From positions 1-37,674 of the forward strand of contig JAGHCH010000061.1 in assembly GCA_021160575.1 (NCBI GenBank): a DNA stretch of 37,674 nucleotides. Reading direction: 5' to 3'. Source of the DNA: Thermoproteota archaeon. GTDB lineage: Archaea > Thermoproteota > Methanomethylicia > Methanomethylicales > JAGHCH01. Positions 5,946 to 28,664 of this stretch are shown piece by piece (within the stretch, counting starts at the first letter, position 1; each line of letters starts with the position of its first letter). Both the position numbers and the translations under genes were made by a program. Under the pieces are notes generated by a model. That model had not been told where the DNA came from. It ran no database searches and worked only from the letters and a program-made list of their open reading frames with translations.

Positions 5946-6458
5946 TTACCTCCCCTCTTTAAACTCCTCCACCTTCACTGGATCTAGCGTAATGTCTACT
6001 ATGTAGTCGAATGGTATTTTCTCAGTCCACTTCGCGGCGTCGAAGATTCCCATCATGCTGAAGCCTATAACCTTGCCATCTTCGGCGAGCACCTCTCTTA
6101 GGAAACCGAGCACCTTCTCTATGGGCACAGCATACTTTGGTATGGCCATTCCACCCAGCAAAACAGCCACTTTGGCGCCTCGTGGATCGCCTTCTTCTCC
6201 AAGCTGCACTCCATAGCCCTCCACCATCACAAGTCTCCTAGCCTTGCTAATCTCAGCGTTAGGGCAGAAGTAGTGCTCAAGTTTCATTGCTCGGATAGCT
6301 CCTACCACGATCTCAGCAAAGGGGAGGCAGAACAGCGGCGTTCCAGCGAAGACCACCTTGCTTCCCTCATTTGGATTGATGGCTGCAAACACTGCCTTTA
6401 AGGAGTTATTCATGCCTACAGCTCCCTTATTTACACTAACAGTTCTCCTAACCCTCAT
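5946..6458 (-). CDS. DUF2124 family protein (methanogen-associated)
   Basis: FAGTPLFCLPFAE, GVQLGE, VLLGGMAIPK and W.EKIPFDYIVD match the family pattern as I recall it. Confidence 0.78.
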   Translation of the reverse strand: MRVRRTVSVNKGAVGMNNSLKAVFAAINPNEGSKVVFAGTPLFCLPFAEIVVGAIRAMKLEHYFCPNAEISKARRLVMVEGYGVQLGEEGDPRGAKVAVLLGGMAIPKYAVPIEKVLGFLREVLAEDGKVIGFSMMGIFDAAKWTEKIPFDYIVDITLDPVKVEEFKEGR

Positions 6459-6546
6459 GAAACTCCACCCTGCACTTCAAAGAGAAATTAATATTGTTTA
6501 TAAGGTAATAGTTTCTATAGCCTTACGAAAAGCTGAGGCGTTAAGT

Positions 6547-7176
6547 GTGATTCTCCAAGAGTTGAAGTCCCTCTCGGCTAGAGGGTTAAGAGGCCCTGCT
6601 CCGAGCTTCGACGAAATTCATATTGCAAGGGCTCTTTGCCTTCTTCACGATAACCCCCCTCTAGGGAGAATTGCACTTTCCAAGTCGCTCGGAATAGGGG
6701 AGGGAGCTGCGAGAACGTTGATTAAAAAGCTTTCCTCCCTAGGTTTATTGAAGATAGATGCTGTAGGAGGCTGCCTGCTGACGGAGAAGGGTGAAGCTTT
6801 AGCCCGGAGGCTGCGAAGCTTCTTCCCAAGGAATCTCCAGTTAAACCTTCCATCCCTAGGCGTAGGTCGGCATGGATATGCCATCCTCGTAAGGTGTACA
6901 ATTAGTGAGCACCGAGTTGTCTCAATTAGAGATATAGCTGTCCGCTATGGAGCTACTGGCGCTCTTGTTATCAAGTACTGCGAGGGGCGTCTAGAAGTGC
7001 CTCTCGTGTACAACGACTTAAAGGAGGAGTACCCCTCAGAAGCCAAGCTAATACTCTCCAAGCTCAAGCCAGAAGACGGAGACACAATCATAATAGCTTT
7101 TTCAGACACTACTTTAAAGGCCGAGCACGCTGCATGGGCCGCTTCTCTTCACGCAGTTAAAGGAGGTGCCCTCTAA
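6547..7176 (+). CDS. Winged-helix transcriptional regulator (CggR-like N-terminus plus DUF4443-like domain)
   Basis: GPAPSF..HI..AL, LGRIALSKSLGIGEGAARTLIKKL and IRDIAVRYGATGA. Start set to GTG 6547 after GAGGCG, because the longer ORF overlaps the divergent DUF2124 gene. Confidence 0.8.
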   Translation: MILQELKSLSARGLRGPAPSFDEIHIARALCLLHDNPPLGRIALSKSLGIGEGAARTLIKKLSSLGLLKIDAVGGCLLTEKGEALARRLRSFFPRNLQLNLPSLGVGRHGYAILVRCTISEHRVVSIRDIAVRYGATGALVIKYCEGRLEVPLVYNDLKEEYPSEAKLILSKLKPEDGDTIIIAFSDTTLKAEHAAWAASLHAVKGGAL

Positions 7177-7514
7177 TGCCGACTATTGTAGATGTGTATG
7201 CCGGGGCCTGTGGTTTCAGAACGATTATCAGAGCTGAAAGCGAAACCTACTCAGCAGGTGATGTCTGTGCTTATGCTGCACGAGTATTCATAGAGAGTGA
7301 GTGCCCATACATTAAAGATCTCGCCAAGAAAATCAAGAGGCTCACCATCCATGACCTATACAAGCCAGTAGGCGACAACCCTGTCTTTAAGGAGGCAGCC
7401 ATCTGTTTACGCCACCCCATGTGCCCTGTTCCATGCGCCATCCTAAAAGCAGCCGAAGCTGAAATGGGACTAGCTCTCAAGAAAAATGTCAGCATAACCT
7501 TCAGAGAGGAGTAG
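7176..7514 (+). CDS. Small Cys-containing protein, DUF6951-like
   Basis: GACGF, ESECP and HPMCPVPCAILKAAEAEMGLAL. TAATG overlap with the upstream gene and a GGAGGTG SD. Confidence 0.75.
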   Translation: MPTIVDVYAGACGFRTIIRAESETYSAGDVCAYAARVFIESECPYIKDLAKKIKRLTIHDLYKPVGDNPVFKEAAICLRHPMCPVPCAILKAAEAEMGLALKKNVSITFREE

Positions 7515-7521
7515 CTCTTCC

Positions 7522-8088
7522 ATGAGCAGCTTAATCCACCCCGCTCTCTACGAAGAACTCATAGCTGCTTCCCTTAAGTCAGAGGCAGAGCTGGCCGCCG
7601 CTCTTAGAAAAGTGCTACAAGAACTGGGCATGACCGTAAAGGAGTTCAGCGAGAAAACAGGTATCCCTGAGAGCACTTTGCACAAAATTCTCTCCGGAAG
7701 TAGGGATATACGCCTTTCCACCCTTCGAGTGCTCGTGAAATCCATTAAGAACCTAGAGGCACCGCCACCGAGCGAGGGTTCCATAGTTATAGGAGTAGTT
7801 GCAGCCCCCTCTTCTCTTAGATGCCTCACCCGCAGAGGATTCACCATTAGGGGCAAGCACGTAATCCTCAGGATGTATCCTGCTAAAACCATTGAGGATG
7901 CCATCATAGCGGCGATAGTAGCTGAAAGGGAGGGTGCCCACGGCATTGTCTGTGCCGAAATAGTTGGAGCGACTGTGAGGAAATTTGTGAGAATTCCAGT
8001 AGCCTACATCTACGTTTGCGAAGAGAACTTCTTGGAAGCTGTGAAGCAGCTTATCAGTGAGATGCGAGTTAAGAGCAAGAGTGCTTAG
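7522..8088 (+). CDS. XRE-HTH transcriptional regulator, COG4800-like
   Basis: LGMTVKEFSEKTGIPESTLHKILSG HTH plus C-terminal YPAKTIEDAIIAAIVAEREGAHGIVCA domain. Confidence 0.82.
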   Translation: MSSLIHPALYEELIAASLKSEAELAAALRKVLQELGMTVKEFSEKTGIPESTLHKILSGSRDIRLSTLRVLVKSIKNLEAPPPSEGSIVIGVVAAPSSLRCLTRRGFTIRGKHVILRMYPAKTIEDAIIAAIVAEREGAHGIVCAEIVGATVRKFVRIPVAYIYVCEENFLEAVKQLISEMRVKSKSA

Positions 8089-8096
8089 AAAGTAAC

Positions 8097-8137
8097 GACT
8101 TCCTAACTAGGATAGTTATCTATATATTAGGGAAGTC
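8097..8137. promoter_or_regulatory. Inverted repeat flanking a TATA-like box upstream of the ABC importer
   Basis: GACTTCC (8097-8103) and GGAAGTC (8131-8137) enclose TCTATATA. Confidence 0.35.
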
Positions 8138-8161
8138 AAGGCTTTCTATGGAGGTCTTACA

Positions 8162-9223
8162 TTGGCAAGTGCAAAGCTCATTGTAGCACTACTAGTAATT
8201 GTTGTCGCTGGTATTGGAGGTTATGCATGGTATCTTCAAAGCCAACCAAAGGTTCTAACCATAAGAATAGGCTATCAGCCATCTACCCATCAAGTGGCGG
8301 AATTCATTATCTCAGCTAAGGGCTGGCTTGTGGAGGAGGCTAAGAAGCTGGGCTATGAGCTGAAGATCGAGGAACACCTCTATCCCTCGGGGCCTCCGGA
8401 AATGGAAGCGTTTATGGCTGGCAGATTGGACGTGGTGTACGTTGGGGCTGCTCCCGTGGTCAATGAAGTCGGGCAAGCCAAAGGCAAGGGTGCACCCCTA
8501 GCTAAGATAGTAGCTTCTACTAACACCCAAGGCTCGGCATTAGTCGTTAGGAAAGACTTCAACTACACTGGTCCCGAAAGCTTGAAGGGAGCAGTCATCG
8601 GCACCTTCCCGCCGGGAAGCATTCAAGACGCCATCCTCAAAGACTGGCTCACCAGCAACGGACTAACCTTCGGCGCCCCTGGAGAAGGTAAGGATGTGAC
8701 CATTATCGCTGGCGGTCCATCAGAGCTCGTCGAAGCTCTGGAGGCCGGAACCGCGGATGCCATTTTCGTTCCAAGTCCAGCGCCCGAGATCTGTGAACTT
8801 AGGGGAATCGGCAAATCTGTGGTGAACTCCTATGAGATGATGCCGGGACACGCCTGCTGCGTTCTAGCAATCAGTGATAAGTTCATTAAGGAGCACAGAG
8901 AGCTAGCCAAACTCATAGTCAAGCTGCATATAAAAGCTCAGAAGTTCATCAAAGAGAACCTCGATGAAACCATAGAAATTGCTGCACAGAGACTCTCCAA
9001 GGACTGGGGCTACGACCTCAGCTTTACCAGAACAGTGGTTGAGAAAGCCTATAAGGAGAACCCAACAGCCCTAGAATTCCCATGGGATCCCCACGAAATC
9101 GTGGACTCGGTGCTCAAATACGCGGAGATACAGTACAAGCTTAAATACATCCCCATACAGCTCACCTGTGATGACCTCTTTGACCTCGACCTCTACGATG
9201 AGGCTGTTGCCGAGATGAAGTGA
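8162..9223 (+). CDS. ABC transporter substrate-binding protein, NitT/TauT/SsuA family
   Basis: N-terminal TM anchor, IRIGYQPSTHQ, SGPPEMEAF.AG.LD..YVGAAP, PPGSIQD and HACC motifs; GGAGG SD. Confidence 0.9.
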   Translation: MASAKLIVALLVIVVAGIGGYAWYLQSQPKVLTIRIGYQPSTHQVAEFIISAKGWLVEEAKKLGYELKIEEHLYPSGPPEMEAFMAGRLDVVYVGAAPVVNEVGQAKGKGAPLAKIVASTNTQGSALVVRKDFNYTGPESLKGAVIGTFPPGSIQDAILKDWLTSNGLTFGAPGEGKDVTIIAGGPSELVEALEAGTADAIFVPSPAPEICELRGIGKSVVNSYEMMPGHACCVLAISDKFIKEHRELAKLIVKLHIKAQKFIKENLDETIEIAAQRLSKDWGYDLSFTRTVVEKAYKENPTALEFPWDPHEIVDSVLKYAEIQYKLKYIPIQLTCDDLFDLDLYDEAVAEMK

Positions 9224-9271
9224 GAATAGCCTTATACAGGTGTTAGCAATTAACTGGAAAGTCTCAGCAGG

Positions 9272-10066
9272 ATGGTGTTGCCATTGACTTCGAGGGATCT
9301 AATAAAGCGATCCCTCACAGTGGAGATCTCAGCTATACTCACCTTTCTCGCTCTATGGGAGGCAGTGGCTAGGTTCAAGCTATTGCCTGCTTATGCTCTC
9401 CCATCGATAGAGGAGGTTGTAGCAGCCCTCTACAGCCAGGCAGCCCTTGGGAATCTAACCTATGCCTTACCCCACAGTCTCCTCCACCTAGCTTTAGGTT
9501 TCGCCGCAGCCTTTGCAGTAGCCTTGCCTTTAGGCATGGCTATGGGCTGGTATAGAACTGCTCAACGCTTCTTTGAACCTCTCATCGGGATCTTCAGACC
9601 AATTCCGCCAATAGCATGGATTCCCTTCGCCCTCCTCTTTTTTGTCTCCCTTCTCCAAGCTTCAGCCTTCATTATCTTCATAGGCGCCTTCTTCCCCTTG
9701 GTCACTAACATCTTCTTTGGCTTCCGCAATGTTCCTAAGCAGCTGGCCGAGATAGCTCACTCCTTCGGAGCATCTGAGAGGGAGATTCTCCTGAAAGTAG
9801 CTTTTCCCTCAGCTCTACCCTCAGTACTCACTGGAGTGAAAGTAGGGCTGGGAGTGGCTTGGATGTGCGTGGTTGCGGCGGAGATGTTTGGCGCCCCAGG
9901 TTTAGGCTTCATGATCATGCAGATGCGTTACGTACACGATATAGCTGGCGTGGTAGCCTACATGGCGGTCATAGGTGCACTAGGCCTTCTTCTTGAGTTC
10001 CTAGTCAAACTTCTCGAACGCAAGCTCCTCAAGTGGAAAATCGGGCTAGTAGCGGAGGGAATCTAA
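9272..10066 (+). CDS. ABC transporter permease, NitT/TauT/SsuC family
   Basis: Multiple TM helices, RPIPPIAWIP, EAA-like loop (AHSFGASE) and WMCVVAAEM. Confidence 0.92.
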   Translation: MVLPLTSRDLIKRSLTVEISAILTFLALWEAVARFKLLPAYALPSIEEVVAALYSQAALGNLTYALPHSLLHLALGFAAAFAVALPLGMAMGWYRTAQRFFEPLIGIFRPIPPIAWIPFALLFFVSLLQASAFIIFIGAFFPLVTNIFFGFRNVPKQLAEIAHSFGASEREILLKVAFPSALPSVLTGVKVGLGVAWMCVVAAEMFGAPGLGFMIMQMRYVHDIAGVVAYMAVIGALGLLLEFLVKLLERKLLKWKIGLVAEGI

Positions 10067-10815
10067 TGAAACCAGAGATTATTGCTGATTCTCTCGTGAA
10101 GAGGTTCAACGATCTTTTGGTGTTAAACCACGTATCCTTCAATGTTTATCCCGGTGAGTTTCTCTGCATTGTTGGCCCCTCCGGATGCGGCAAATCTACA
10201 CTTATCAGAATTTTATTAGGGCTCGAGAAACCTGATGAAGGTCGCGTGGAAATCCATGGACATTCTCCAAATCCAAGGATGTGCAAGTGCATAGGCTACG
10301 TCCCACAAGATGACGCGCTCTTCCCGTGGAGAACAGTGCTCAAAAATGTGCTCTTCGGCTTAGAGCTGAAAAACGAAAACGGGGAAAAAGCTCTCGAAAA
10401 GGCCCACCAAACCATAAAGATGGTAGGTCTCTCCGGGTTTGAAAACTACTATCCTCACCAGCTCTCAGGAGGTATGCGGAAACGAGTAGCGCTTGCCAGA
10501 GCCGTAGCCGTTGATCCCCAAATACTACTCATGGACGAGCCTTTTGCCAACATCGATGCCCAGACGCGGGCCCTCCTTCAAGTGGAGCTCATGAACATAT
10601 GGTCTAGGCTGAGAAAGACGGTGGTCTTTGTTACTCACAACGTTGAAGAAGCAGTGTTCCTAGCCGATAGGGTTCTGGTTCTCACCAAGAGGCCAGCCAA
10701 GGTGAAGGCTGAGATCCCTATAGAGCTTCCACGCCCCAGAAAGCGGTTAAGCCCACAGTTTATTTCTGTTAGAGAACGCATCATAAGAATGCTAAAAGAG
10801 GAAGTTTCAATATAA
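10066..10815 (+). CDS. ABC transporter ATP-binding protein, NitT/TauT/SsuB family
   Basis: GPSGCGKST, LFPWRTV, YPHQLSGGM, LLMDEPF and VTHNVEEAVFLADR. ATG 10066 overlaps the permease stop. Confidence 0.93.
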   Translation: MKPEIIADSLVKRFNDLLVLNHVSFNVYPGEFLCIVGPSGCGKSTLIRILLGLEKPDEGRVEIHGHSPNPRMCKCIGYVPQDDALFPWRTVLKNVLFGLELKNENGEKALEKAHQTIKMVGLSGFENYYPHQLSGGMRKRVALARAVAVDPQILLMDEPFANIDAQTRALLQVELMNIWSRLRKTVVFVTHNVEEAVFLADRVLVLTKRPAKVKAEIPIELPRPRKRLSPQFISVRERIIRMLKEEVSI

Positions 10816-10874
10816 CACATACTTCACTTTTCATTAATTAGTGGGTTTTAAAGAATCTGATTTTTACTAAAAGT

Positions 10875-10892
10875 GGGCGAAAGCTATTTAGT
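10875..10892 (+). promoter_or_regulatory. Putative BRE/TATA promoter of mcrBGA
   Basis: GGGCGAAAG followed by CTATTTAG about 60 nt upstream of the proposed mcrB start; weak match. Confidence 0.3.
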
Positions 10893-10949
10893 CTAAGCTC
10901 GCCTCTAATGGATTACTGCCAGAAAGGCGTTTTAAAGAGGGAAGATATC

Positions 10950-12281
10950 TTGCCTAGGTACCCTGATAAAATAGACCTCTATGACGACCGTGGTAACCTC
11001 GTTGACACCAATGTGCCTCTTGAGGCCATTAGCCCTCTTCTGAACCCGGCTATCAAGCAGATGGTGCAGCTCATCAAGAGGTGTGTCGTCGTTGACCTCG
11101 AGGGTCTTGAAAAGGCTTTGGCCACTGGCGCTGTAGGTGGCGCTCGATGCATAGTGGCTGGTCGTTCTCTAAAGCTAGACCTAGTGGCAAACGCTGAAGC
11201 CATTGCTGACAAACTGGCTGAGTGCATTCGCGTGAAGCCAGACGACGACACTGAGGTCAAGGTCATAAGGGGAGGCAAGACCCTTCTAGTCTACGTCCCT
11301 AGCACAAGGTTCGAGGCTGGCGTTGAGTACACCACTGGCTGCACCACGGTTGCCGCTGGCCTTTGCTACACCATTATTGAGATGTTCAACGTAGACCTCT
11401 TCGACGCAGATCTTATCCACACTGCGGTCTGGGGTAGGCATCCGCAGACCGTAGATATGCTCGGCGGCTTCGTGAAGATGCTCTTAGCGATGCCTCAGGC
11501 AAATGAGGGTCCCGGCTATGCTCTGAGAAACGTCCCTGTAGCCCACTTGGCCATTATCACTAGGAAGAACGCCATGAATGCCGCTGCTCTAGCCTCAATC
11601 TTGGAGCACACTGCAGCTTTCGAGATGGGCGACGCCATCGGGCCCTTCGAGAGGCTTCACCTCCTAGGCCTAGCTTATCAAGGCTTAAATGCCAACAACA
11701 TGGTCTACGATCTAGTTAAGGAGAATGGCAACGGCACTCTAGGCGACGTTGTCCGATCCACTGTGAGGCGCGCTGTTGAGGATGGTGTGATCAGACCTCT
11801 TAAGAAGCTGTCTTCTGGCTATACCGTCTACACAACCGATGACCTACCGCTGTGGAATGCCTATGCCGCTGCTGGCCTCATGGCTGGAACCATGGTAGTC
11901 TGCGGTGCAGCTAGGGCGATGCAGCATATACCTTCAGTCATGATATACTTCAACGATCTAATTGAGAGGGAGACTGGTCTCCCCGGCGTAGACTTCGGCA
12001 GAGTTGCCGGAACAGGTGTGGAGATGAGCTTCTTCAGCCACTCCATCTACGGCGGAGGCAACCCCGTGGTCTTCCACGGCAACCACATTGTCACAAGGCA
12101 CTCAAAGGGCTTCGTCATCCCATGCGCCGCAGCTGCAGTAGCCCTAGATGCTGGAACAGTGGGCTTCACACCAGAGAGAGTTAGCGGAGTAGTCGGTGAG
12201 GCTCTAGGCGAGGTGCCTCTACTCAGAGAGCCTCTAAAGCATGTAGCTCAAGCAGCTTCTCAAATTAAGGGGGAGATATGA
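10950..12281 (+). CDS. mcrB: Methyl-coenzyme M reductase beta subunit
   Basis: DKIDLYDDRG, LEAISPL.NPAI, EGPGYALRN, GPFERLHLLGLAYQGLNANN and SFFSHSIYGGG (active-site Tyr). Start set to TTG 10950 after GAGGG. Confidence 0.97.
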   Translation: MPRYPDKIDLYDDRGNLVDTNVPLEAISPLLNPAIKQMVQLIKRCVVVDLEGLEKALATGAVGGARCIVAGRSLKLDLVANAEAIADKLAECIRVKPDDDTEVKVIRGGKTLLVYVPSTRFEAGVEYTTGCTTVAAGLCYTIIEMFNVDLFDADLIHTAVWGRHPQTVDMLGGFVKMLLAMPQANEGPGYALRNVPVAHLAIITRKNAMNAAALASILEHTAAFEMGDAIGPFERLHLLGLAYQGLNANNMVYDLVKENGNGTLGDVVRSTVRRAVEDGVIRPLKKLSSGYTVYTTDDLPLWNAYAAAGLMAGTMVVCGAARAMQHIPSVMIYFNDLIERETGLPGVDFGRVAGTGVEMSFFSHSIYGGGNPVVFHGNHIVTRHSKGFVIPCAAAAVALDAGTVGFTPERVSGVVGEALGEVPLLREPLKHVAQAASQIKGEI

Positions 12282-12282
12282 A

Positions 12283-13059
12283 ATGTCCGAGTGGAAGCCT
12301 CAATTTTACCCAGGTCAGAGCTCCATAGCCGCCAATCGCAGAAAGTATATTGACCCGTCCTTCCGGCCTAGGAAAATACGCTCGGTAAGCGACGAAGATA
12401 TCGTCAAGCTGCTAGGGCACCGAGCTCCCGGAGAAGCCTACAGATCGGTCCATCCACCACTCGAGGAGATGGGAGAGCCAGATTGTCCAATACGAAAGCT
12501 AGTAACACCGACTCCTGGTGCCAAGGCAGGTGACAGAATTCGATATATACAGTTCACTGACTCCGTATACTTCTCGCCACTAGTTCCATACATGAGGGCT
12601 TGGGTGGGCCATTCAAGGTACCGTGGCGTGGACATAGGTGTCCTATCTGGAAGAAGCCCCCTTGAGGCCAGAGAAAGGGACGTGGAAATAATTGCAAAGG
12701 AGTTCATAGAGACCGAATGGTTTGATGCTGCTAGGACTGCTGTCAGAGGCGCTACTGTGCACGGGCACTCTCTTAGGCTAGATGAGAACGGCTTAATGTT
12801 CGATGCCCTACGAAGATACGTCTACGACAAAGAGACAGGTGAAGTTGTCTACGTAAAGGATCAAGTAGGTGTGCCACTAGACAAGCCTATCTCCGTAGGT
12901 AAGCCGCTGCCTGAAGAAGAGCTTAAGAAGGTCACAACTACCTTCCGTGTGGACGGCGTGCCTTTCAGAGAGGACAAGGAGCTCATTGAGTTTGTCCAGC
13001 GTGTTCATGAGCTTAGAACAAGAGCTGGCTTCAACCCTGAGAAAGTAAAAGGTATTTAG
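12283..13059 (+). CDS. mcrG: Methyl-coenzyme M reductase gamma subunit
   Basis: [42 protein letters not shown] and [20 protein letters not shown]. Confidence 0.97.
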
Positions 13060-13099
13060 AGTCATGGTTAAAAGTAGGGGAAGGAGGGAAAGATCGAAA

Positions 13100-15469: not shown

Positions 15470-15492
15470 GCATAGCGACCTCCGCTCTTTTC

Positions 15493-17032: not shown

Positions 17033-17058
17033 GATATCGTCTCCATATTTTATACATG

Positions 17059-17098
17059 ATCTATATAGCCTATCTAAAATAGTGTGGCAATCTATATA
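17059..17098. promoter_or_regulatory. Repeated ATCTATATA elements in the phoU-pstS divergent promoter
   Basis: ATCTATATA at 17059 and 17090, with variant ATCTAAAAT at 17072. Confidence 0.35.
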
Positions 17099-17133
17099 AA
17101 TCCATTGTCTCCGCCTTCTCCCGGGGATAAAAC

Positions 17134-18165
17134 GTGGAACCTATCAATCAGCGAGGCTTAGGAAAAAGCGGCGTCATCCTAGCAGTGCTAGTAGTTGTTG
17201 TGCTACTGATTTCGGTCACCTACATTCTCCAGCCCAAAGCTGTAGAGATACATCTCTCCGGCTCTACCACTGTCTACCCCCTTGCTACAAAGTGGGCGGA
17301 AGAGTATATGCAAAAGAAACCCAACTATAAGATCGACGTTTCCGGAGGCGGATCTGGCAAAGGTATCAGCGATGTAGCGCAAAACCTCGTAGACATAGGA
17401 ATGTCCTCGCGGCACTTGAAGAGCGAAGAGTTCAAAAAGTATCCTTCGCTAATCCCCATCCCTATCGCTCATGACGCGGTAATGATCATCATAAATTCTA
17501 AGAATCCTGTGCTCAACACATTGCTGGAGAAGGGGATTTCAAGGGATGCTCTCATCAAAATTTACGTTGAGGGCTCTCTCAAGAGCTGGGAGTATGTTGC
17601 TAGCATTGATCTGGATGACGACGGCTACATAGACTACAATGGGACTCACGCACTTAACCCTGAAACTGGCCTCCTTGAGTACATGCCCAGCAATTACAAG
17701 CTTTCTGCAAGCTATGAGATACATCCTATCACGAGAAGCGATGCATCTGGAACCGCAGAAACCTTTGCTGAATTTCTTGGAGTAAACCAAGAAGATCTCA
17801 AGGGTATAGGCGCCTCTGGCAATCCGGGAGTTCTCCAAGCGGTAGCAAGTGATCCACTCGCAATAGGGTATGTGGGCCTTGCCTTTGCCTTCAAGGAAGG
17901 AGTATGCGCCATGCCTATCGACGCCAACAATAATGGCATTATTGAGGAACATGAACGAGTTGATAGCGAGGCTTACGTAGCCAGTCACATAGCTGACTAT
18001 CCAATCTCAAGGATCCTGTTCTTCGTAGTTAATGGTAAGCCCACTAAAGAGGTGGCCGACTTCATCCATTGGTGTCTGACGGAAGGACAGACGTATGTAA
18101 GCGATGTTGGCTACGTCTCACTCACACCAAGCGAAGTTGAGGATGCCTTAAGTCTAATCCGCTGA
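17134..18165 (+). CDS. pstS: Phosphate ABC transporter substrate-binding protein
   Basis: SGSTTVYP, GGGSGKGI, DIGMSSR, TRSDASGT and AIGYVGL. Confidence 0.93.
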   Translation: MEPINQRGLGKSGVILAVLVVVVLLISVTYILQPKAVEIHLSGSTTVYPLATKWAEEYMQKKPNYKIDVSGGGSGKGISDVAQNLVDIGMSSRHLKSEEFKKYPSLIPIPIAHDAVMIIINSKNPVLNTLLEKGISRDALIKIYVEGSLKSWEYVASIDLDDDGYIDYNGTHALNPETGLLEYMPSNYKLSASYEIHPITRSDASGTAETFAEFLGVNQEDLKGIGASGNPGVLQAVASDPLAIGYVGLAFAFKEGVCAMPIDANNNGIIEEHERVDSEAYVASHIADYPISRILFFVVNGKPTKEVADFIHWCLTEGQTYVSDVGYVSLTPSEVEDALSLIR

Positions 18166-18170
18166 GGGAG

Positions 18171-19154
18171 ATGGCAGTGTCCCTCAAAAACCGCTCCACA
18201 TTTTTTACTGATCGAGAAGGGGCTAATCCTCGCAGTTTACGCGGTAAAATTGACAAGTTGTCATCATGCTTTCTAGCAATAGCCTCAATTTCATCAATCT
18301 TCGTAGTTTCAACTATTGCTGCTCTTCTTCTGTATAACTTCATGAAATTCTGTGAACAAGGTTTTCTTCCAAGCATTCTCTCTGATGTGTGGCTCCCCAG
18401 TAAAGGAGAATATGGTCTCCTCCCATTCATAGCCGGGACACTATGGATTACCGCTGTTGCTATGACCATTTCTCTGCCACTAGGCTTTCTTACGGCAATC
18501 TTCATGGCAGAATACATTCCGCGGAAAATGCATTCTCCGATTAAGTCGCTGATCGAACTTCTAGCGGGAATTCCGTCCGTAGTGTATGGTATGTGGGGTT
18601 TAATGGTCCTAGTGCCTCTTGTGAGAGATCAACTTGCTCCTCTTATAGGAGGCAGCCTTGGCAAAGTTTTCCCACTATTTAGGGTGAATGTAAATATTGG
18701 TTTCAGCATTCTCGCAGCGGGGATTGTTCTTTCAATAATGGTGCTTCCAATAATGATCTCCACATCGGAGGAGGTTATGCGTGCAGTTCCTATGGAGTAT
18801 CGTGAAGCGGCTTTAGCTCTAGGTGCCACTAGGTGGCAAGCAACTAAAACGGTAGTCTTACGGCTGGCGTCCCCTGGTATCTTTGCTGGTATTATTCTCT
18901 CCTTCTGCCGTGCATTTGGGGAGACTATGGCCGTGCTGATGGTTGCTGGGAATGTAATAACAGTTCCTTCTTCACTGTTTGACCCTGCTTATCCGCTTAC
19001 AGCTCTCATTGCAAACCACCTTCCAGAGATGATCTCTATTCCATCCTATGCTTATGCATTGCTAACAGCTGGTTTCATACTGTTCGTAGTTACCTTTTCT
19101 TTCAATGTGATTGCTAGGTTAGTCGTCCGCAGACTGAAAAGAATGGGGCAATAG
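18171..19154 (+). CDS. pstC: Phosphate ABC transporter permease PstC
   Basis: ELLAGIPSVVYGMWG, REAALALGATRW and RAFGETMAVLMVAGN. Confidence 0.94.
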   Translation: MAVSLKNRSTFFTDREGANPRSLRGKIDKLSSCFLAIASISSIFVVSTIAALLLYNFMKFCEQGFLPSILSDVWLPSKGEYGLLPFIAGTLWITAVAMTISLPLGFLTAIFMAEYIPRKMHSPIKSLIELLAGIPSVVYGMWGLMVLVPLVRDQLAPLIGGSLGKVFPLFRVNVNIGFSILAAGIVLSIMVLPIMISTSEEVMRAVPMEYREAALALGATRWQATKTVVLRLASPGIFAGIILSFCRAFGETMAVLMVAGNVITVPSSLFDPAYPLTALIANHLPEMISIPSYAYALLTAGFILFVVTFSFNVIARLVVRRLKRMGQ

Positions 19155-19156
19155 CC

Positions 19157-19999
19157 ATGCGCAGAGCGATGATGGAAGAATTGCTGATAAAGCTTCTCAT
19201 GGCGATAGCGACCGTCGTTGTACTAGGTTTTCTTCTAGTAATTCTAGTAGATATTGCAAGAAGGGGGGTCTCTGCTCTCTCCCTGTCAATGCTTATTGAA
19301 CTGCCCAGAAATGCTGGGCGAGAAGGAGGGCTTCTCAATGCTATAGTGGGCTCCCTTTACATATCGAGTTTGGCAACATTGTTTTCAGCTTCAATTGGCG
19401 TTCCCGCCGGGCTCTACATTGCGGAATTTGAGGGTAAGTCTAGAATCGCGCGTGCAGCCAGCTTCGCAGCTGAAGTACTGTCGGGAATCCCGTCTATAGT
19501 TTTTGGAGTGTATGGATTCATCATCTTCGTAATAATGCTTAACATGGGAGTTTCATTGCTTGCTGGAGCTCTTACTCTGGCTTGCCTAGAACTACCCATA
19601 ATAATCAAGGTTACAGAGGAAACTGTAAAGCTAGTGCCCTCACATATTAAGGAAGCTGCTCTATCTCTTGGGGCTACTCGCTGGGAGGTTCTCTCCAAAG
19701 TTACTATTCGCCAAGCTGTTCCAGGCATTGCGACTGCGGTACTTCTAGCATTCGCCCGCGGAGCTGGAGAAGCAGCCCCGCTCATGTTTACTTCTGGTTA
19801 CAGCAACTTTACACCAAGCTCTCTTCTCAGCCCGGCAGCAAACCTTCCCCTAGCTGTTTACTACTTGATTATGATGCCATTTCCTGAAGCTCACATGAGG
19901 GCATACGCGGCTGCTTTCATCCTAACAATAATGGTTCTCTCCATGAATTGGTGTTCCAGGATGCTCTTTAAGAGGTGGAGTCGATATGTTGTCAAGTAA
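19157..19999 (+). CDS. pstA: Phosphate ABC transporter permease PstA
   Basis: GGLLNAIVGS, LSGIPSIVFG, EAALSLGATRW and ARGAGEAAPLMFT. Confidence 0.94.
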   Translation: MRRAMMEELLIKLLMAIATVVVLGFLLVILVDIARRGVSALSLSMLIELPRNAGREGGLLNAIVGSLYISSLATLFSASIGVPAGLYIAEFEGKSRIARAASFAAEVLSGIPSIVFGVYGFIIFVIMLNMGVSLLAGALTLACLELPIIIKVTEETVKLVPSHIKEAALSLGATRWEVLSKVTIRQAVPGIATAVLLAFARGAGEAAPLMFTSGYSNFTPSSLLSPAANLPLAVYYLIMMPFPEAHMRAYAAAFILTIMVLSMNWCSRMLFKRWSRYVVK

Positions 20000-20789
20000 G
20001 AGTCTTAAAAACTTGCAGCATTCTCGCCCCTCTGTCCAAGGTAAAATAGTTGTAGAAAACTTGAATGTCTACTTTGGGAAGCACCATGTTCTCAAAAATC
20101 TCTCCATAGCCATACCAGATCGTCAAGTGACCGCGATTATTGGTCCTTCCGGCTGCGGTAAGACAACATTCCTCCGCTCGCTCAATCGGATGATAGAGCT
20201 TGTAGACGGCGCTAAGGTAACAGGCAAGGTGTTCCTAGACGGCCTTAACATCTACTCCCCGAAAGTAGATAGCTCTGATATCAGGCGCAGAGTAGGCATG
20301 GTCTTCCAAAAACCAAATCCTCTCCCAATGAGCATATATGACAACGTAGCCTTCGGGCCAAGGATACACGGCATCAGAAACAAGAAGGTTCTTGACAAAT
20401 TGGTAGAGGAATCTCTCAAAGCTGCTGGACTTTGGGATGAAGTAAAGAATAGACTTAAAGATCCCGCCGTCTCCCTCTCTGGCGGTCAGCAGCAGCGTCT
20501 CTGCATCGCAAGGGCACTCGCAGTCAACCCAGAAGTTCTACTGATGGATGAACCCACCGCTTCTTTAGATCCCATCTCCTCAGCGAAAATAGAATCCTTA
20601 ATTCGTGAGCTAAAAAGAAAGTACACTATCATAGTTGTTACCCATAACTTGCAGCAAGCTATGCGCATCGCTGATTATGTAGTCTTCCTCTTCATGGGAG
20701 AACTGATAGAACACGGAGCAGCTGATGAAATCTTCACCTCTCCAAGAAATACTAAAACTATTGAATATCTTAGGGGGGCTTTCAGCTAA
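19986..20789 (+). CDS. pstB: Phosphate ABC transporter ATP-binding protein
   Basis: GPSGCGKTT, VGMVFQKPNP, LSGGQQQRLCIARALA and LDPIS. Confidence 0.95.
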   Translation: MLSSKSLKNLQHSRPSVQGKIVVENLNVYFGKHHVLKNLSIAIPDRQVTAIIGPSGCGKTTFLRSLNRMIELVDGAKVTGKVFLDGLNIYSPKVDSSDIRRRVGMVFQKPNPLPMSIYDNVAFGPRIHGIRNKKVLDKLVEESLKAAGLWDEVKNRLKDPAVSLSGGQQQRLCIARALAVNPEVLLMDEPTASLDPISSAKIESLIRELKRKYTIIVVTHNLQQAMRIADYVVFLFMGELIEHGAADEIFTSPRNTKTIEYLRGAFS

Positions 20790-20851
20790 GCCTATAATTT
20801 CCAGCTACGTAAGACAATAATGCCAGCTCTTTCCGTGCGCGGTGTCTCCTC

Positions 20852-22207
20852 GTGAAAATCGCGGTTGTCACTCCTGAAGTTTACACTTATGGCGCTATGC
20901 TGGTAGCTGGTTCCTTAGAGGAAGCTGGACATGAAGTTAAGCTGATCAAGGTCGCTGATCTACGATCTCCTCCGGTGGACGAGCTAAGAAACTACCCCAT
21001 GGTTTGCCTCGGCCTTTACTCCACCCTTCACATAGCTAAATTAGCTCCGCTTATACGGCAGCTTGCTAAAGCTGGCTGCTACACCGTTGTAGGGGGTCCG
21101 GCCGCTTTTGAACCTAGAGTGGTTTTCTACCATATTCCTGAAGTTGATGCAGTGGTGGTTGGTGAAGCTGAAGACTCTATAGCCGCTTTAGCCAACTTGT
21201 TCTCTAAAGCCTCTCCTAAGCCTCCTCCAAAAGACCTTGAAGGTATTCCTGGGGTATTTTTCGTGGAGGGCGATGAAGTTGCTGGCACTCCTCCTAAACC
21301 AGTAGACTTGGACAAGCGCCCTCCACCCAAGATCCCCCCAGACATCTACAGAGAGAACATTCGAGGAGCCAACGTCTACATGGAGATTCTCCGCGGCTGC
21401 CATGGCAACTGCACCTTCTGCCAAGTGCACTGCATGTTCGGGAGAGTTATCCGCTGTAGAGCTCTAGAAGACGTAGTTGCCGAGGCTAGGGAGTTCTCAA
21501 GAATGGGAGCTTCAAGAATAGCCATTAGTGGAGGCACAGTCACCTACTATAGATGCAGCGGCTATTCTTTCACCGACCTCCTCCATAGCCTCTCTTCTCT
21601 AGTCGGTCCTGACAATCTTTCAACACCTGACGTTAGAGTTGATGCAGTGGATGATGAAGTGCTTGAAGCTATAAAGAGGTACACAATAGGGTGGATTTTC
21701 TACGGCATAGAGTCTGGCAGCCAGAGAATGCTCAATAAAATGCGTAAGGGAATTACCCTCCAGCAGATCAAAAATGCTGTGGAAATGGCTAGAGAACTTG
21801 GGGTAAAGGTGGCCGGTTCCTTTATCGTCGGCTATCTAGGAGAGAGCGATGAAGACTACGAAGAGACCAAGCAGCTAGTGGAGGAGCTTTCTCTCCACGA
21901 CTGCTTTGTCAGCATAGCCGAGCCTTTGCCCAGAACCCCCTACCTTGAAGAGGTGCTCAAGTCACCCCTCTCTGAAAACCCAGTGTTCGTAAAGGATCAA
22001 GGGCTCTATGGGAGGAAGTATGGGCTTACAGTGGCTGAAGCGAGAGCCTTCGACCTCATGATAACTGGCTTCATCTCAAAGCCTAGGCTGGAGCTTCTGT
22101 CAAGAGATGTCGAGCTCTCCTTCCTTCAAGAAGCGAAGAGGCAAGGGGAAGATATACGAAAAGCAACCCTAATGCTGCGGCAAGCCCTCACTCAGCTCTC
22201 TCTATGA
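20852..22207 (+). CDS. mgmA: B12-binding radical SAM protein, MJ0865/TIGR04014-like; probable MCR glutamine C-methyltransferase
   Basis: N-terminal PEVYTYGAML.AG, LYSTLH and VGGP B12 domain; IRGANVYMEILRGCHGNCTFCQV (CxxxCxxC), RIAISGGT, PDVRVD and GIESGS. Lies 6 kb from mcrA. Confidence 0.78.
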   Translation: MKIAVVTPEVYTYGAMLVAGSLEEAGHEVKLIKVADLRSPPVDELRNYPMVCLGLYSTLHIAKLAPLIRQLAKAGCYTVVGGPAAFEPRVVFYHIPEVDAVVVGEAEDSIAALANLFSKASPKPPPKDLEGIPGVFFVEGDEVAGTPPKPVDLDKRPPPKIPPDIYRENIRGANVYMEILRGCHGNCTFCQVHCMFGRVIRCRALEDVVAEAREFSRMGASRIAISGGTVTYYRCSGYSFTDLLHSLSSLVGPDNLSTPDVRVDAVDDEVLEAIKRYTIGWIFYGIESGSQRMLNKMRKGITLQQIKNAVEMARELGVKVAGSFIVGYLGESDEDYEETKQLVEELSLHDCFVSIAEPLPRTPYLEEVLKSPLSENPVFVKDQGLYGRKYGLTVAEARAFDLMITGFISKPRLELLSRDVELSFLQEAKRQGEDIRKATLMLRQALTQLSL

Positions 22208-22991
22208 TCTGATCTACTAGTCCTAGAATCTCCCTAGTCTCCTCCACCACGTAGTCCGCGACTTCAAAAAGTTCTCTGGGCTTCTCCTCTCCATCTTGAA
22301 GCGTCAAAACCGAAATATCCGCGTGTATCATAGCTTCATAGTCGTTTAGATCGTTACCTATCATGAAAACTAAGCCATAAAAGCCCTTCAACCTCTCCAC
22401 GATCTCCGCTTTCTCATAGGGATCTGCGTTAGCAAAGGTAAAGTAGCTTGAAATGCCGAGCTTCTTAGCCAGCTTGCCCACCGAATTTCTGCAGTTCCCC
22501 GAGACCAAGAAGAAGTCAATTCCTCTCTTCTTTAAGCCGCCTATGAGCTCCACAATCCCCGGGTAAAGCTCCCCACCTAAGCCTACACAATGGGAGGGCC
22601 TTCTAATCTCACCGTCAACAATTACAGCTAATCCAGTGCCATACTTCGTTTTACCTGTGCGCAGCACCTCCAAATAAGCTGCTTTAAGTCCTTCAGCTAT
22701 TCGTCTAAAATTTTCTTCTTCCTTCAAGCTAAGGCGATAGATTTTCACAGCTTCCTCTTTCGATATTCCTACGTAATAGCTGGCAACAGCCCTTGCCTTC
22801 TCCAAGAACTCCCCAGGGTCTTTTGTAACCCTACTTAAAGGCCCCTCTAAATTCACAAGAGCTCTCTTTGCAGAGGAGACCAACTCGATAACTGAGATCT
22901 CCTTAAGTAGTTTACCACCCCAGCAGTCAACAACTACCCTATAGGGCTTGAGGATAGTCCCCGATACGTCAAAGACTATTGCTATCCTCAA
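22188..22991 (-). CDS. HAD-family soluble P-type ATPase-like protein (COG4087-like, methanogen-associated)
   Basis: AIVFDVSGT (DxSGT), LVSG, K...V..L and MIGNDLND..AM..AD; no TM segments. Confidence 0.8.
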   Translation of the reverse strand: MRIAIVFDVSGTILKPYRVVVDCWGGKLLKEISVIELVSSAKRALVNLEGPLSRVTKDPGEFLEKARAVASYYVGISKEEAVKIYRLSLKEEENFRRIAEGLKAAYLEVLRTGKTKYGTGLAVIVDGEIRRPSHCVGLGGELYPGIVELIGGLKKRGIDFFLVSGNCRNSVGKLAKKLGISSYFTFANADPYEKAEIVERLKGFYGLVFMIGNDLNDYEAMIHADISVLTLQDGEEKPRELFEVADYVVEETREILGLVDQIIERAE

Positions 22992-23006
22992 GGATGTTAC
23001 ACCGCT

Positions 23007-23324
23007 TCAGCCCACGCAACCGCTGTCGTAAATTTCTTTTTCAAGAAGCTCCTCTGCACCCTCCTCCTCCAAGCTCCTTCTAGGCTTCAACTCAACCTCC
23101 GCTTTTACTCTTTCCTCTTTCTTCCTTCTTCTCTCCATCAGCTCAAGAACTCTCTTTAGCTCCTCCTCCGAAGAGGGCTCAAGATACTCTACGCTATAGA
23201 GAAGCCCGGTAGTGTCTAGCTCAGCCCATAACCCCCCTATTTCATCTCTTACAACACTAATAACCCTACCAACGGTGCCAGTTCCCTTATACCTCACCAC
23301 ATCCCCAATTTTCACAGCTTCCAT
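23007..23324 (-). CDS. DUF2098 family protein (methanogen-associated)
   Basis: IGDVVRYKGTGTVGRV...WAELDTTGLLY..EYLE, charged linker, C-terminal GCVG. Confidence 0.8.
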   Translation of the reverse strand: MEAVKIGDVVRYKGTGTVGRVISVVRDEIGGLWAELDTTGLLYSVEYLEPSSEEELKRVLELMERRRKKEERVKAEVELKPRRSLEEEGAEELLEKEIYDSGCVG

Positions 23325-23435
23325 GATTAAGCATCCCCCACCAATCTTATTACACGCCCCCCTATAACAGAGTTCCTCTCCAGCGAATTTCTCCTAAGAT
23401 TATCACCCGGCATCAGCTGCGTATCTCAAGACCAT

Positions 23436-23471
23436 AAACTATATTTCAGCAGTCCAAAATTATATCTCAGC
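23436..23471. repeat. Imperfect 15-bp direct repeat in a divergent promoter
   Basis: AAACTATATTTCAGC (23436-23450) and AAATTATATCTCAGC (23457-23471); 13/15 identical, 21-bp period. Confidence 0.55.
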
Positions 23472-23477
23472 TCCCTA

Positions 23478-24458
23478 GTGGGGATGGGTTCCTTGCTACA
23501 AGAGAGCTTACAGCAAATCACCGAGGAACTTCGAAAGTTTCGAGGGCTCTCAAGGAAGTCCTGCATAGGCGACATCTTGAAGGTCTTCGGAGAAAGAGAA
23601 TTCGATGACGCTGGTTTCCTCGATATAGATGACTTCTATATAGTGGTCTCAACCGATGGGATAACCGAAGATCTGGTGAAGGCGGATCCATGGCTAGCTG
23701 GCTACTACTCCGTGCTGGTAAACGTGAACGACGTTGTTGTGAAGGGAGCTAAACCTCTAGGCTATGTCAACGTAGTTTCCTCTCCTAACAGTCAAACCCG
23801 GCTGATGATAGCCAAGGGCATCGAGGCCGCGCTTAAGAAGTATGGGCTGAAGCTCTTGAAAGGGCATACACACCCTGACACTTCTTATGAAGCTATAGAT
23901 GCCGCGGTGATAGGCGTTGCGAAGCGCATTGCAAGAAGCTCCACGGCAAAGCCAGGGGATAGCATCCTTCTTGCAGTAGACCTCGACGGCTCCTTTGGAC
24001 AGAAGGGATGGGTAAAGTGCTTCGACTCTACTCAGCATAAAAGCCCTGAAGAACTCCGGCAAATGCTCTTCACAGTAATCGACGTGGTCGAGTCCTCATT
24101 GGTCACCGCTTCAAGAGACGTCAGCGCCCCCGGAATCATCGGGAGCATTGCCATGCTCTGTGAGTCAAGCAACGTTGGTGCTTCCATCAACCTAGAAGCG
24201 GTACCAAAGCCTGAAAATACCTCTATCGTCGATTGGCTTACCGCTTATCCAGCCTTAGGTTTTATCTTCACAACGTCCAAAGCCCGAGAATGCCTCCGCC
24301 TACTCGAGAGCAAGGGTTACCACGTTTCTGTCATAGGCGAAGTCAACAATACTAAGAAAATCACCCTACAATACCGAGGAGAAAGCGAAATCTTTGCAGA
24401 TCTTAACACAGAGTCTATCTTCGGCTTCAGAAAGCCCATACACCCCTGCCTACCCTAA
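23478..24458 (+). CDS. mmp2: Methanogenesis marker protein 2 (AIR synthase/PurM-like)
   Basis: LRKFRGLSRK..IGD, DDAG, ADPWLAGYYSVLVNVND, GHTHPD, RDVSAPG and DWLTAYP. Confidence 0.82.
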   Translation: MGMGSLLQESLQQITEELRKFRGLSRKSCIGDILKVFGEREFDDAGFLDIDDFYIVVSTDGITEDLVKADPWLAGYYSVLVNVNDVVVKGAKPLGYVNVVSSPNSQTRLMIAKGIEAALKKYGLKLLKGHTHPDTSYEAIDAAVIGVAKRIARSSTAKPGDSILLAVDLDGSFGQKGWVKCFDSTQHKSPEELRQMLFTVIDVVESSLVTASRDVSAPGIIGSIAMLCESSNVGASINLEAVPKPENTSIVDWLTAYPALGFIFTTSKARECLRLLESKGYHVSVIGEVNNTKKITLQYRGESEIFADLNTESIFGFRKPIHPCLP

Positions 24459-28652: not shown

Positions 28653-28664
28653 AGGGGCAATTTC

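Follow-up and report, generated by a model that had tools for sequence, protein, structure and literature searches.

In Methanobacteriales, Methanococcales and other euryarchaeal methanogens, an mcrBDCGA operon encodes methyl-coenzyme M reductase (MCR), and heterologous production and in-vitro activation of the enzyme are limited by unidentified accessory factors (PMC9081873). In Methanomassiliicoccales, 13 marker genes including mcr lie within about 16 kb (Borrel et al. 2014, PMC4153887). MgmA methylates a glutamine at MCR's active site, and its gene lies in a cluster with mcr in Methanobacteriales and Methanosaeta (PMC11796369). DUF2098 was co-purified with McrC, Mmp3, Mmp7, Mmp17 and A2, and a cryo-electron microscopy structure shows it bound to a loop of McrC (PMC12176620); SsuABC has been called the coenzyme M (CoM)-specific ATP-binding cassette (ABC) transporter of Methanosarcina acetivorans (PMC12068725). 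This study was concerned with the genes around mcrBGA at positions 5946-24458 of a 37,674-nucleotide stretch of DNA (the window) from a Thermoproteota archaeon of the order Methanomethylicales (GenBank assembly GCA_021160575.1). The window is the entire contig JAGHCH010000061.1 (C60 in our numbering) of a 1.40 Mb genome that consists of 131 contigs and has an estimated completeness of 91.9%. A preliminary description, made from the sequence alone, had seen in this region a compact gene neighbourhood and had inferred from it a system for MCR maturation, cofactor supply and regulation, several of the families being described as largely confined to MCR-bearing archaea and usually scattered. We put the probability at about 75% that the region is an mcr-centred neighbourhood typical of its order, here in expanded form, with inferred import, regulation and accessory roles.

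The gene map was based on a listing of open reading frames (ORFs) and on scans with hidden Markov models (HMMs) of Pfam and NCBIfam/TIGRFAM. These scans placed DUF2124, a helix-turn-helix (HTH) regulator, mcrBGA, DUF483, an MJ0865-like B12 radical SAM gene, a HAD gene and DUF2098 where the preliminary description had put them. On the + strand, mcrB (10908-12281; MCR_beta, MCR_beta_N), mcrG (12283-13059; MCR_gamma) and mcrA (13064-14794; MCR_alpha, TIGR03256) encode the same enzyme in the same B-G-A order as the euryarchaeal operon. McrA scored 983.8 bits against TIGR03256 (cut-off 767.75) and is encoded by the sole mcrA of the genome. It matched solved methanogen MCRs at 830-898 bits, the highest value being that for M. 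kandleri (PDB 1e6v), versus 537 bits for ethyl-CoM reductase. By these alignment scores, mcrBGA encodes a canonical methyl-coenzyme M reductase and not an alkyl-CoM reductase. Aligned with the M. kandleri protein, McrA conserves 'AKHAEV', 'RRxR', 'FGGSQRA' and 'FYGYDxQDQCG', which are the contexts of the modification sites as far as sequence can tell. We take the residues bearing the known MCR modifications to be His, Arg, Gln, Gly, Asp and Cys in the active-site region.

Unlike the mcrBDCGA operon, the mcr operon of the window has neither mcrD nor mcrC between mcrB and mcrG. These genes were located on another contig, C70 (locus L098, 1969-16135), where one strand has mmp5, mcrC, which scored 281 bits, and a short gene resembling mcrD. 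The opposite strand of C70 carries mmp3-mmp6-mmp17-mmp7 together with genes for an A2-like ATPase and for a RamA/AcsV-like corrinoid activase; mmp16 lies farther along. The A2-like ATPase scored 317 bits, under its family cut-off of 517. As assigned by homology, the core activation machinery (McrC, Mmp3, Mmp7, Mmp17 and the A2-like ATPase) is a second cluster, on contig C70.

The class sample used for comparison consisted of 62 genomes, in which this genome is the sole member of its family. The sister family, in the same order, comprised 32 genomes from 10 genera, with mcrA in 31; a sister order comprised 10 genomes, with mcrA in four; and six further families comprised 19 genomes, none of which had mcrA. 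Gaps were computed from the coordinates given by family and protein searches in the 62 genomes, and a gene was counted as near when it lay within 12 kb of mcrA. For the sister family the denominator is the number of genomes with both the gene family and mcrA, the remainder lying on other contigs of fragmented assemblies.

The cluster is near-invariant and tighter in the sister family, and the window is an expanded version of it. DUF483 and the HAD gene were each near mcrA in 30 of 31 sister-family genomes (median gaps 225 bp and 658 bp), DUF2098 in 29 of 30 (1.4 kb) and Mmp2 in 28 of 31 (1.8 kb). The XRE regulator was near in 26 of 28 (2.3 kb), the DUF4443 regulator in 22 of 27 (5.5 kb) and DUF2124 in 19 of 26 (6.3 kb), the other seven DUF2124 genes being on other contigs. 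The gene order in the sister family begins with por genes, an unknown ORF (orf137), a gamma-carbonic-anhydrase-like gene and DUF2124 (-). It continues on the + strand with the core array DUF4443 regulator-ssuA-ssuC-ssuB-XRE-mcrB-mcrG-mcrA-DUF483, with gaps of a few bases to about 90, and ends with HAD (-), DUF2098 (-), Mmp2 (+) and a double-ABC ATPase (-). Compared with this order, the window has a phoU-pstSCAB-mgmA block inserted between DUF483 and HAD, the XRE gene upstream instead of downstream of ssuABC, and DUF6951 added after the DUF4443 regulator. Each marker family had a single match over its cut-off, or a single full-length match, in the 1.40 Mb genome, and by our own arithmetic the chance that six unlinked genes fall within 10 kb of mcrA is about (20/1402)^6. 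The families named in the preliminary description do lie within about 18.5 kb, but about half of the roughly 21 genes in this span are not marker genes. This half (the transporters, phoU, the DUF4443 regulator and DUF6951) had gone unnamed, and the related clusters are tighter. The view that such genes are usually scattered was wrong for this order, and also for Methanomassiliicoccales (PMC4153887).

Outside the order, the cluster was found in part. In the sister order, only DUF483 and DUF2098 were near mcrA, in all four genomes with mcrA, at 2.6-5 kb. There mgmA, DUF2098 and DUF483 are co-directional; DUF2098 and DUF483 overlap in L099 (4 bp) and in L103 (11 bp) and are spaced by 12-23 bp in L100-L102. 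The best 80 McrA loci, each of about ±10 kb, were also compared by searching their ORFs with HMMs built from the fetched orthologues. Since these HMMs derive from sequences of the Thaumarchaeota, Aigarchaeota, Crenarchaeota and Korarchaeota (TACK) group, divergent homologues may escape them. Matches within the 80 loci numbered 16 each for DUF2098 and Mmp2, 12 for the DUF4443 regulator, 10 for DUF483, nine each for XRE and ssuA, eight for HAD, seven for DUF2124 and four each for DUF6951 and mgmA. The nearest McrA sequences (83-86% identity) came from metagenome-assembled genomes titled Methanomethylicaceae, Nezhaarchaeota WYZ-LMO8 and Methanosuratincola. Among the loci titled Methanobacteriales or Methanococcales, nothing beyond mgmA was found save one weak Mmp2 match (L069, 35 bits); no DUF483 was found near mcrA in these loci, whereas in the window it follows mcrA.

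A close parallel is that of Methanomassiliicoccales, which likewise have mcrBGA and methanogen-restricted genes on a small stretch (PMC4153887). In the Methanomassiliicoccales loci fetched here, the small gene adjoining mcrA is DUF2098, starting 7 bp after it, and in the window it is DUF483. A DUF4443 regulator-DUF6951 pair lies a few kb downstream of mcrA in those loci, and the pair is present in the window too. DUF483, DUF2124, Mmp2 and SsuABC were not found within 10 kb of mcrA there. The soluble P-type ATPase (arCOG01579), given in PMC4153887 as absent from Methanomassiliicoccales, is a member of the cluster in the window. In addition, the mmp and A2 activation genes of this genome are on a separate contig.

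Three genes upstream of mcrB and on its strand (8162-10815) encode an SsuA/NMT1-type ABC transporter: a binding protein (8162-9223; NMT1_2), a permease (9272-10066) and an ATPase (10033-10815). This transporter would import coenzyme M or a sulfonate precursor, a reading proposed because an Ssu-type transporter is fixed in the mcr array of an order without CoM synthesis. It forms a co-directional array with mcrBGA in eight Methanomethylicales-type loci; in a Bathyarchaeota-labelled locus (L011) it adjoins the regulator and mcrB but is on the opposite strand. ComD (sulfopyruvate decarboxylase) is required by both published routes to CoM, and Mmp16 is CoM synthase. Neither ComA nor ComD was found in this genome, and at E<=1e-10 ComD was found in none of the 62 class genomes, two single-contig genomes included. 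Mmp16 was found in nine of the 62 genomes and in five of the 32 of the sister family. The M. acetivorans SsuABC is of the same type (SsuA/NMT1-like binding protein, TauC/SsuC-like permease and ATPase), the two being likened by type and not by direct similarity. For M. petrocarbonis, a relative that is in culture, the growth medium includes 10 mg/l CoM (PMC12244365). Most simply, the transporter of the window may be read as an importer of CoM or of a CoM precursor.

Several observations weigh against this reading, and its rival is the import of a general sulfur, nitrogen or carbon compound, such as sulfonates or taurine, nitrate or bicarbonate, in which case the place beside mcr would be irrelevant to the cofactor. 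First, the binding protein scored above the cut-off for NMT1_2 (107 bits), but with 140.3 bits against TIGR01728 (SsuA_fam) it fell below the cut-off of 163.5, in which it differs from the M. acetivorans comparison. It also matched the NMT1/THI5 and phosphonate-binding families. Secondly, its few relatives in the PDB are unspecific, being uncharacterised binding proteins and one bicarbonate binder; the permease is SaoP/TauC/SsuC-like, and permease and ATPase scored below the SaoP, TauC and SaoA cut-offs. Third, this genome keeps Mmp16. Lastly, in the paper on M. petrocarbonis the growth factor reported to be essential is yeast extract and not CoM (PMC12244365). We nevertheless regard a general importer as unlikely, if still a serious contender. 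ComD is in none of the 62 genomes and Mmp16 was not found in 27 of the 32 sister-family genomes; therefore, an outside source of CoM would be needed. Moreover, the transporter stays beside mcrB throughout the order and also in L011, and a transporter of the same type has been called CoM-specific in M. acetivorans (PMC12068725).

DUF483 (14837-15469, +; 210 aa) shares its strand with mcrA, starts 42 bp beyond it and, across the two orders, is the gene that stays beside mcrA most consistently. It scored 108.4 bits against PF04467 (cut-off 25), covering profile positions 2-121 of 122. Full-length matches to this short form of about 200 aa (84-121 bits) were found in 37 class genomes, all of which belong to the family of the window, its sister family or the sister order. 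A paralog of about 300 aa that has the domain core only occurred in 12 class genomes from families without mcrA, and the PF04467 family as a whole is not MCR-specific. One Atlas cluster hinted that the non-MCR paralogs are methyltransferase fusions; two were examined and had no second Pfam domain, and this idea was dropped. The short form has an invariant R78-P79, Y107-P108-x-C110-C111 and C154, a conserved G146-F-x-P-C150 in which one sequence has H for the cysteine, and near-invariant H187 and H189 in L-P-H187-x-H189.

The AlphaFold2 model of DUF483 (predicted local distance difference test, pLDDT, 91.4) is confident and mainly helical. When it was compared with the PDB by Foldseek, no match reached E<=0.001, and the best template-modelling (TM) score was 0.23; its structure neighbours in the Atlas all had TM<=0.36, and phmmer against PDB sequences gave no match. 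Among 1.84 billion proteins, phmmer found 13 representatives at E<=0.001, and a word-index search gave four matches each for DUF483 and the XRE regulator, small numbers owed to the index. A complex prediction of DUF2098 with DUF483, using both alignments, had a median score of 0.13 (mark 0.32) and, run without controls, has no bearing on binding. Two NCBI proteins that possibly come from one relative (P0018 and P0002) showed 90% identity for MgmA and only 66% for DUF483. If P0018 and P0002 share a genome, DUF483 would evolve much faster than MgmA.

Co-transcription of DUF483 with mcrA is probable. DUF483 would be a candidate metal-binding accessory (Cys4/His2-type) acting on newly made MCR, with or alongside DUF2098. 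It would work with DUF2098, and hence with McrC, in maturing or activating fresh MCR. On this proposal mcrC and mcrD would have left the operon in these lineages, and DUF483 may do part of their job. The combined reading, that DUF483 is a new metal-binding MCR accessory of TACK methanogens and that Methanomethylicales, unable to make CoM, import it by the SsuABC-type transporter as part of the mcr array controlled by the XRE regulator, is offered tentatively, and we would expect it to fail more often than hold.

DUF2098 (23007-23324, -; 105 aa) scored 68.2 bits against PF09871 (cut-off 25). The single sequence gave no phmmer match in the PDB; only a profile of 20 family members found the solved chain, matching 8s7x_L, 8s7v_L and 9h1l at E 5e-14 (5.3e-14 for 8s7x_L). 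By this profile match, the protein is homologous to the small McrC-docking subunit of the ATP-driven MCR activation complex, that is, to chain L of the Methanococcus maripaludis complex (PMC12176620; 8s7v, 8s7x, 9h1l). This genome also encodes McrC, Mmp3, Mmp7, Mmp17 and, with the sub-cut-off score given above (317 versus 517), an A2-like ATPase, but DUF2098 is the only member of that complex in the mcrBGA neighbourhood. DUF2098 was found in 39 of the 62 class genomes, and one family without mcrA had two weak partial matches. It lies directly after mcrA in four Methanomassiliicoccales loci and in L018, L022 and L023.

In 30 of 31 sister-family genomes, the gene for the soluble HAD protein (22188-22991, -; 267 aa) has DUF483 on one side and DUF2098 on the other. 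The protein scored 64.8 bits against PF00702 and matched P-type ATPase models in part; the best PDB entries were CopB catalytic fragments (E 2e-12), to which it is similar in size. It has the phosphorylation and nucleotide-binding domains without the membrane part of a P-type ATPase. Its D8-V-S-G-T12 phosphorylation motif, its motif III lysine (K194) and its motif IV (G212-N-D-L-N-D217) are as expected of a soluble P-type-ATPase-like protein of the kind named arCOG01579 or COG4087, and D8-x-S10-G11-T12, K194 and G212-N-D-x-N-D217 were invariant in nine of nine orthologues. Full or partial matches at the mcr cluster were found in the genome of the window and in 31 of the 32 sister-family genomes. 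Elsewhere the query met only membrane ATPases of 580-840 aa, and the 10 genomes of the sister order had no full-length match.

The AIRS gene at 23478-24458 (+; AIRS, AIRS_C) had been called Mmp2. An AIRS gene is indeed there and TIGR03267 is its best family, for which it is also the best match in the genome, but its 272 bits are under the cut-off of 365, and against the sll0787 AIR-synthase-like family it scored 220.9 bits (cut-off 321.3). All 39 matches in the class scored 207-271 bits, and the low score is therefore taken as a trait of the lineage. The protein is likely a divergent Mmp2 orthologue with an ATP-utilising PurM-type fold, judging by these matches. It was found in 39 of the 62 class genomes and in none of the 19 from families without mcrA. 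Mmp2 is also beside mcr in Archaeoglobi-type loci (L016, L017 and L038), and in other methanogens it is reported to sit in mmp clusters (PMC12978539). The HAD protein and Mmp2 would supply ATP- or phosphate-dependent steps. DUF2124 (5946-6458, -; 170 aa) is divergent from the neighbouring regulator gene. It scored 120.5 bits against PF09897 over profile positions 2-140 of 141 and matched PDB 2r47 (MTH_862, uncharacterised) at E 1.8e-21. It was found in 33 of the 62 class genomes, three of these being incomplete genomes in which mcrA was not found, and in none of the 19 from families without mcrA; among the control genomes only M. jannaschii and M. acetivorans had it.

MgmA (B12_SAM_MJ_0865; 20852-22207, +) scored 487.1 bits against TIGR04014 (cut-off 360) and has B12-binding (PF02310) and Radical_SAM (PF04055) domains. 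The translation has the CxxxCxxC motif as 'CHGNCTFC', and the McrA of the window has the context of the target glutamine, 'FGGSQR'. It thus belongs to the enzyme family that installs 2-methylglutamine in McrA, as in the described system (PMC11796369), and its gene is likewise a few kb from mcrA. In four Methanobacterium or Methanothermobacter loci, mgmA is about 6 kb upstream of mcrA. Methanomethylicales are listed as lacking MgmA in PMC11796369, whereas this genome carries it, as the only one of the 33 of the order. Matches above the cut-off were found in three of the 62 class genomes, namely this one and two of the sister order, and in none of the 32 of the sister family. Its best named relatives were from Thermoproteota, Nezhaarchaeales, Hadarchaeales and Bathyarchaeota (47-49% identity), followed by Methanothermobacter and Methanoculleus (44-47%). 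These identities, which were compared without a tree, and the mgmA arrangement of the sister order suggest ancestral retention rather than recent import. In one sister-order genome (G057), two short ORFs of 103 and 105 aa at the mgmA site (L100 7637-8262, -) match parts of MgmA and look like a decaying mgmA gene.

Three further genes lie between DUF2124 and the transporter. The first encodes a winged-HTH regulator with a DUF4443 domain (PH0730-like; 6358-7176, +), which scored 72.2 bits against PF14544 and 32.5 bits against PF22167. As the orthologues have about 210 aa, translation probably begins at a site downstream of 6358. It was found in 53 of the 62 class genomes, in every family including those without mcrA, and in the Sulfolobus control; it was also near the mcr cluster in four Methanomassiliicoccales loci. 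With this wide distribution it is therefore not MCR-specific, and it would be a general regulator of this archaeal group that flanks the cluster by happenstance. The second gene, DUF6951 (7176-7514, +), starts in overlap with the stop codon of this regulator and encodes a small, cysteine-rich protein (PF22263, 90 bits). The two genes are paired downstream of mcrA in the Methanomassiliicoccales loci L053, L056, L065 and L079, and DUF6951 also occurs in a family without mcrA (f3). In the sister family DUF6951 is located away from this position, and in at least 13 of those genomes it recurs in a pair with a B12 radical SAM gene at a distance of about 2 kb; the latter gene scored 139-165 bits against TIGR04014, below the cut-off (for example G018:C9:12876-16140 and G036:C1:52878-56183).

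The third gene encodes an XRE/HTH_3 regulator of 188 aa (7522-8088, +; HTH_3, 34.1 bits), which is likely the gene that had been called COG4800-like. COG4800 is a methanogen HTH regulator of the MMP1499 type (Gao and Gupta 2007, PMC1852104). The AlphaFold2 model (pLDDT 80) has an HTH and a small alpha/beta C-terminal domain, and Foldseek gave weak matches to LacI, PurR and Rex repressors (E 4e-4 to 1e-3, TM 0.23-0.34). The nearest Atlas clusters, at a score of 0.95, were archaeal HTH_3 proteins of about 176-183 aa, mostly from Methanobacteriota, and are a lead only. The protein would be a small-molecule-responsive regulator of the ssu-mcr array, a role proposed because its orthologue is immediately upstream of mcrB in the sister family (26 of 28 genomes). 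Against such a role, the regulator was found in nine of the 10 sister-order genomes, including ones in which mcrA was not found.

The neighbourhood could also be a matter of descent only, that is, of intact inheritance in a young, slowly rearranging order in which most neighbours have no tie to MCR. Upstream, the por genes, orf137 and the gamma-carbonic-anhydrase-like gene keep their places across the order just as well. As the conserved order extends to the unrelated por genes, being neighbours in the order is weak evidence on its own and may in part reflect inheritance rather than function. The distance to mcrA in the sister order is 0.14-0.7 Mb for DUF2124, the XRE and DUF4443 regulators and Mmp2, where they are not on other contigs, and the pst insertion indicates that unrelated genes can enter the cluster. 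The DUF4443 regulator is, as noted, not MCR-specific. These points count against a functional neighbourhood, but we consider descent alone improbable as the whole explanation for several reasons. First, DUF2124, DUF2098, Mmp2, the short DUF483 and also the soluble HAD occur only in the families that bear mcrA. Secondly, DUF2098, Mmp2 and DUF483 adjoin mcr in other, distant lineages. Third, two members, MgmA and DUF2098, have experimentally shown MCR roles. Lastly, the ssu-XRE-mcr-DUF483 genes all run the same way in a single array, with 0-93 bp between them. Confinement to MCR-bearing archaea held for DUF2124, DUF2098, the Mmp2-like protein, MgmA, the short DUF483 and the soluble HAD, which were essentially absent from the 19 genomes without mcrA, but not for the DUF4443 regulator, DUF6951 and the XRE regulator, which also occur in genomes without mcrA.

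The expansion of the window consists mainly of a phoU-like regulator gene (16001-17032, -; PhoU) and a pstSCAB phosphate transporter (17134-20789, +), whose genes gave PBP_like_2, two BPD_transp_1 and ABC_tran matches and PstS-family matches. No match to pstS, pstC, pstA or phoU was found within ±10 kb of mcrA in the best 80 related loci. The phoU-pst block is probably unrelated to MCR, found beside mcrA in this window only among the loci compared, and would be a passenger insertion. At the borders of the pst-mgmA block, neither an Rfam family nor a tRNA gene nor any meaningful flanking repeat was found; the 530 bp at its left border (15470-16000) likewise lack a credible ORF, a match in Rfam and a tRNA. 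The G+C content is 0.45-0.49 between about 15 and 26 kb, versus 0.52-0.54 over mcr. A scan with bacterial promoter and terminator models, which are not applicable to archaea, gave numbers close to those of shuffled sequence (21 vs 17.2 and 14 vs 15.9).

Words of the window between 14000 and 23500 were present in 20 public runs from 12 studies, labelled as marine sediment or hydrothermal vent metagenomes, and contigs from four runs were aligned onto 5900-25000. In run X4, which does not belong to the possible source study, one contig of 31.8 kb spans 5900-25000 with 215 differences and 13 gaps (about 99% identity). Contigs of run X5 bridge the pstB/mgmA and mgmA/HAD/DUF2098 borders, and independent contigs cross both borders of the pst block. 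An assembly or binning artefact, in which the contig joins different organisms, for example at the phoU-pst-mgmA block, would fit the fall in G+C (from 0.52-0.54 over mcr to 0.45-0.48 across 15-26 kb), the lack of a block at the equivalent place in any sister-family locus and the 530-bp left border without a credible ORF, but it can be dismissed as next to impossible given the independent 31.8 kb contig, the bridging contigs of other runs, the synteny of the order matched on both flanks and the lack of flanking repeats or tRNA genes at the block. A chimeric contig had been named beforehand as a finding that would overturn the clustering, and the independent contig carries the region intact. 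RNA-library contigs overlie ssuA, mcrG, mcrA, pstS and pstB; they are no proof of transcription, were used neither for expression nor for silence, and so add no weight to the functional reading of the neighbourhood.

Just outside the span, nikR (24450-24842, -) is divergent from a ZnuABC-type metal ABC transporter (24951-27524, +) across a 108-bp spacer. NikR matched NikR_C (77.2 bits, cut-off 22) and RHH_1 (38.6 bits, cut-off 20.5), both above the cut-off, and the transporter matched ZnuA, ABC_tran and ABC-3. By these domain matches the pair is probably a nickel-responsive uptake unit. That it serves the nickel supply to MCR is conjecture, because the pair was not found beside mcr in related loci.

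Several other features were observed in the window and in related genomes. Further along the window, 27528-32419 and 35234-36298 encode a fusion of DUF362 with ferredoxin, three radical SAM proteins that belong to no specific family, a protein with a metallo-beta-lactamase fold, and DUF169. In two Methanomassiliicoccales loci, DUF169 was also matched weakly some 6 kb upstream of mcrA. At the other end, the beta subunit of pyruvate:ferredoxin oxidoreductase (por; 507-1456, -) is split into two overlapping ORFs, 839-1456 and 507-986. Each has a TPP_enzyme_C match (profile positions 2-105 and 95-150), so that a frameshift or an error in sequencing is suggested. A double-ABC ATPase of about 545-585 aa follows Mmp2 in the sister family (for example L008 14331-15968, -) and lies directly after mcrA in the sister order (L099 8958-10709, -); it is possibly a component A2 candidate. 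Six sister-family genomes (G018, G020, G024, G026, G031 and G035) have a second, divergent mcrA-like gene on another contig, which scored 516-534 bits, under the MCR cut-off, and may be an alkyl-CoM-reductase-type paralog by this score.

Term searches of the literature found no function paper for DUF2124, DUF483, COG4800, COG4087 or 'soluble P-type ATPase' in methanogens, and nothing specific on the transporter in Methanomethylicales or on Mmp2 function. They also found no description of the Methanomethylicales arrangement, of DUF483 with mcrA or of a transporter-mcr link, and priority elsewhere is possible. The cluster is a further, lineage-specific case of the known clustering of mcr with marker genes, and the gain is incremental. 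The idea of an MCR maturation, cofactor-supply and regulation system survives for maturation (MgmA), for activation (DUF2098) and probably for cofactor supply. It was overstated for the regulators, pst and phoU have no evident tie to MCR, and the core activation genes are on C70.

The cluster gives a short, ranked list of accessory-factor candidates for one of the few cultured groups of non-euryarchaeal methanogens. DUF483 ranks first as the tightest and most persistent neighbour of mcrA, with conserved Cys and His residues and no relative of solved fold, and it is followed by the soluble HAD protein, Mmp2 and DUF2124. MgmA and DUF2098 already have published functions, and the useful leads are DUF483 and the sulfonate-type transporter. 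The lineage of the window keeps MgmA and Mmp16, both lost in most of the order, which helps to reconstruct the ancestor of the order. If the import reading is true, Methanomethylicales would be cofactor scavengers in their communities, and the suggested dependency on CoM would matter for their cultivation and ecology.

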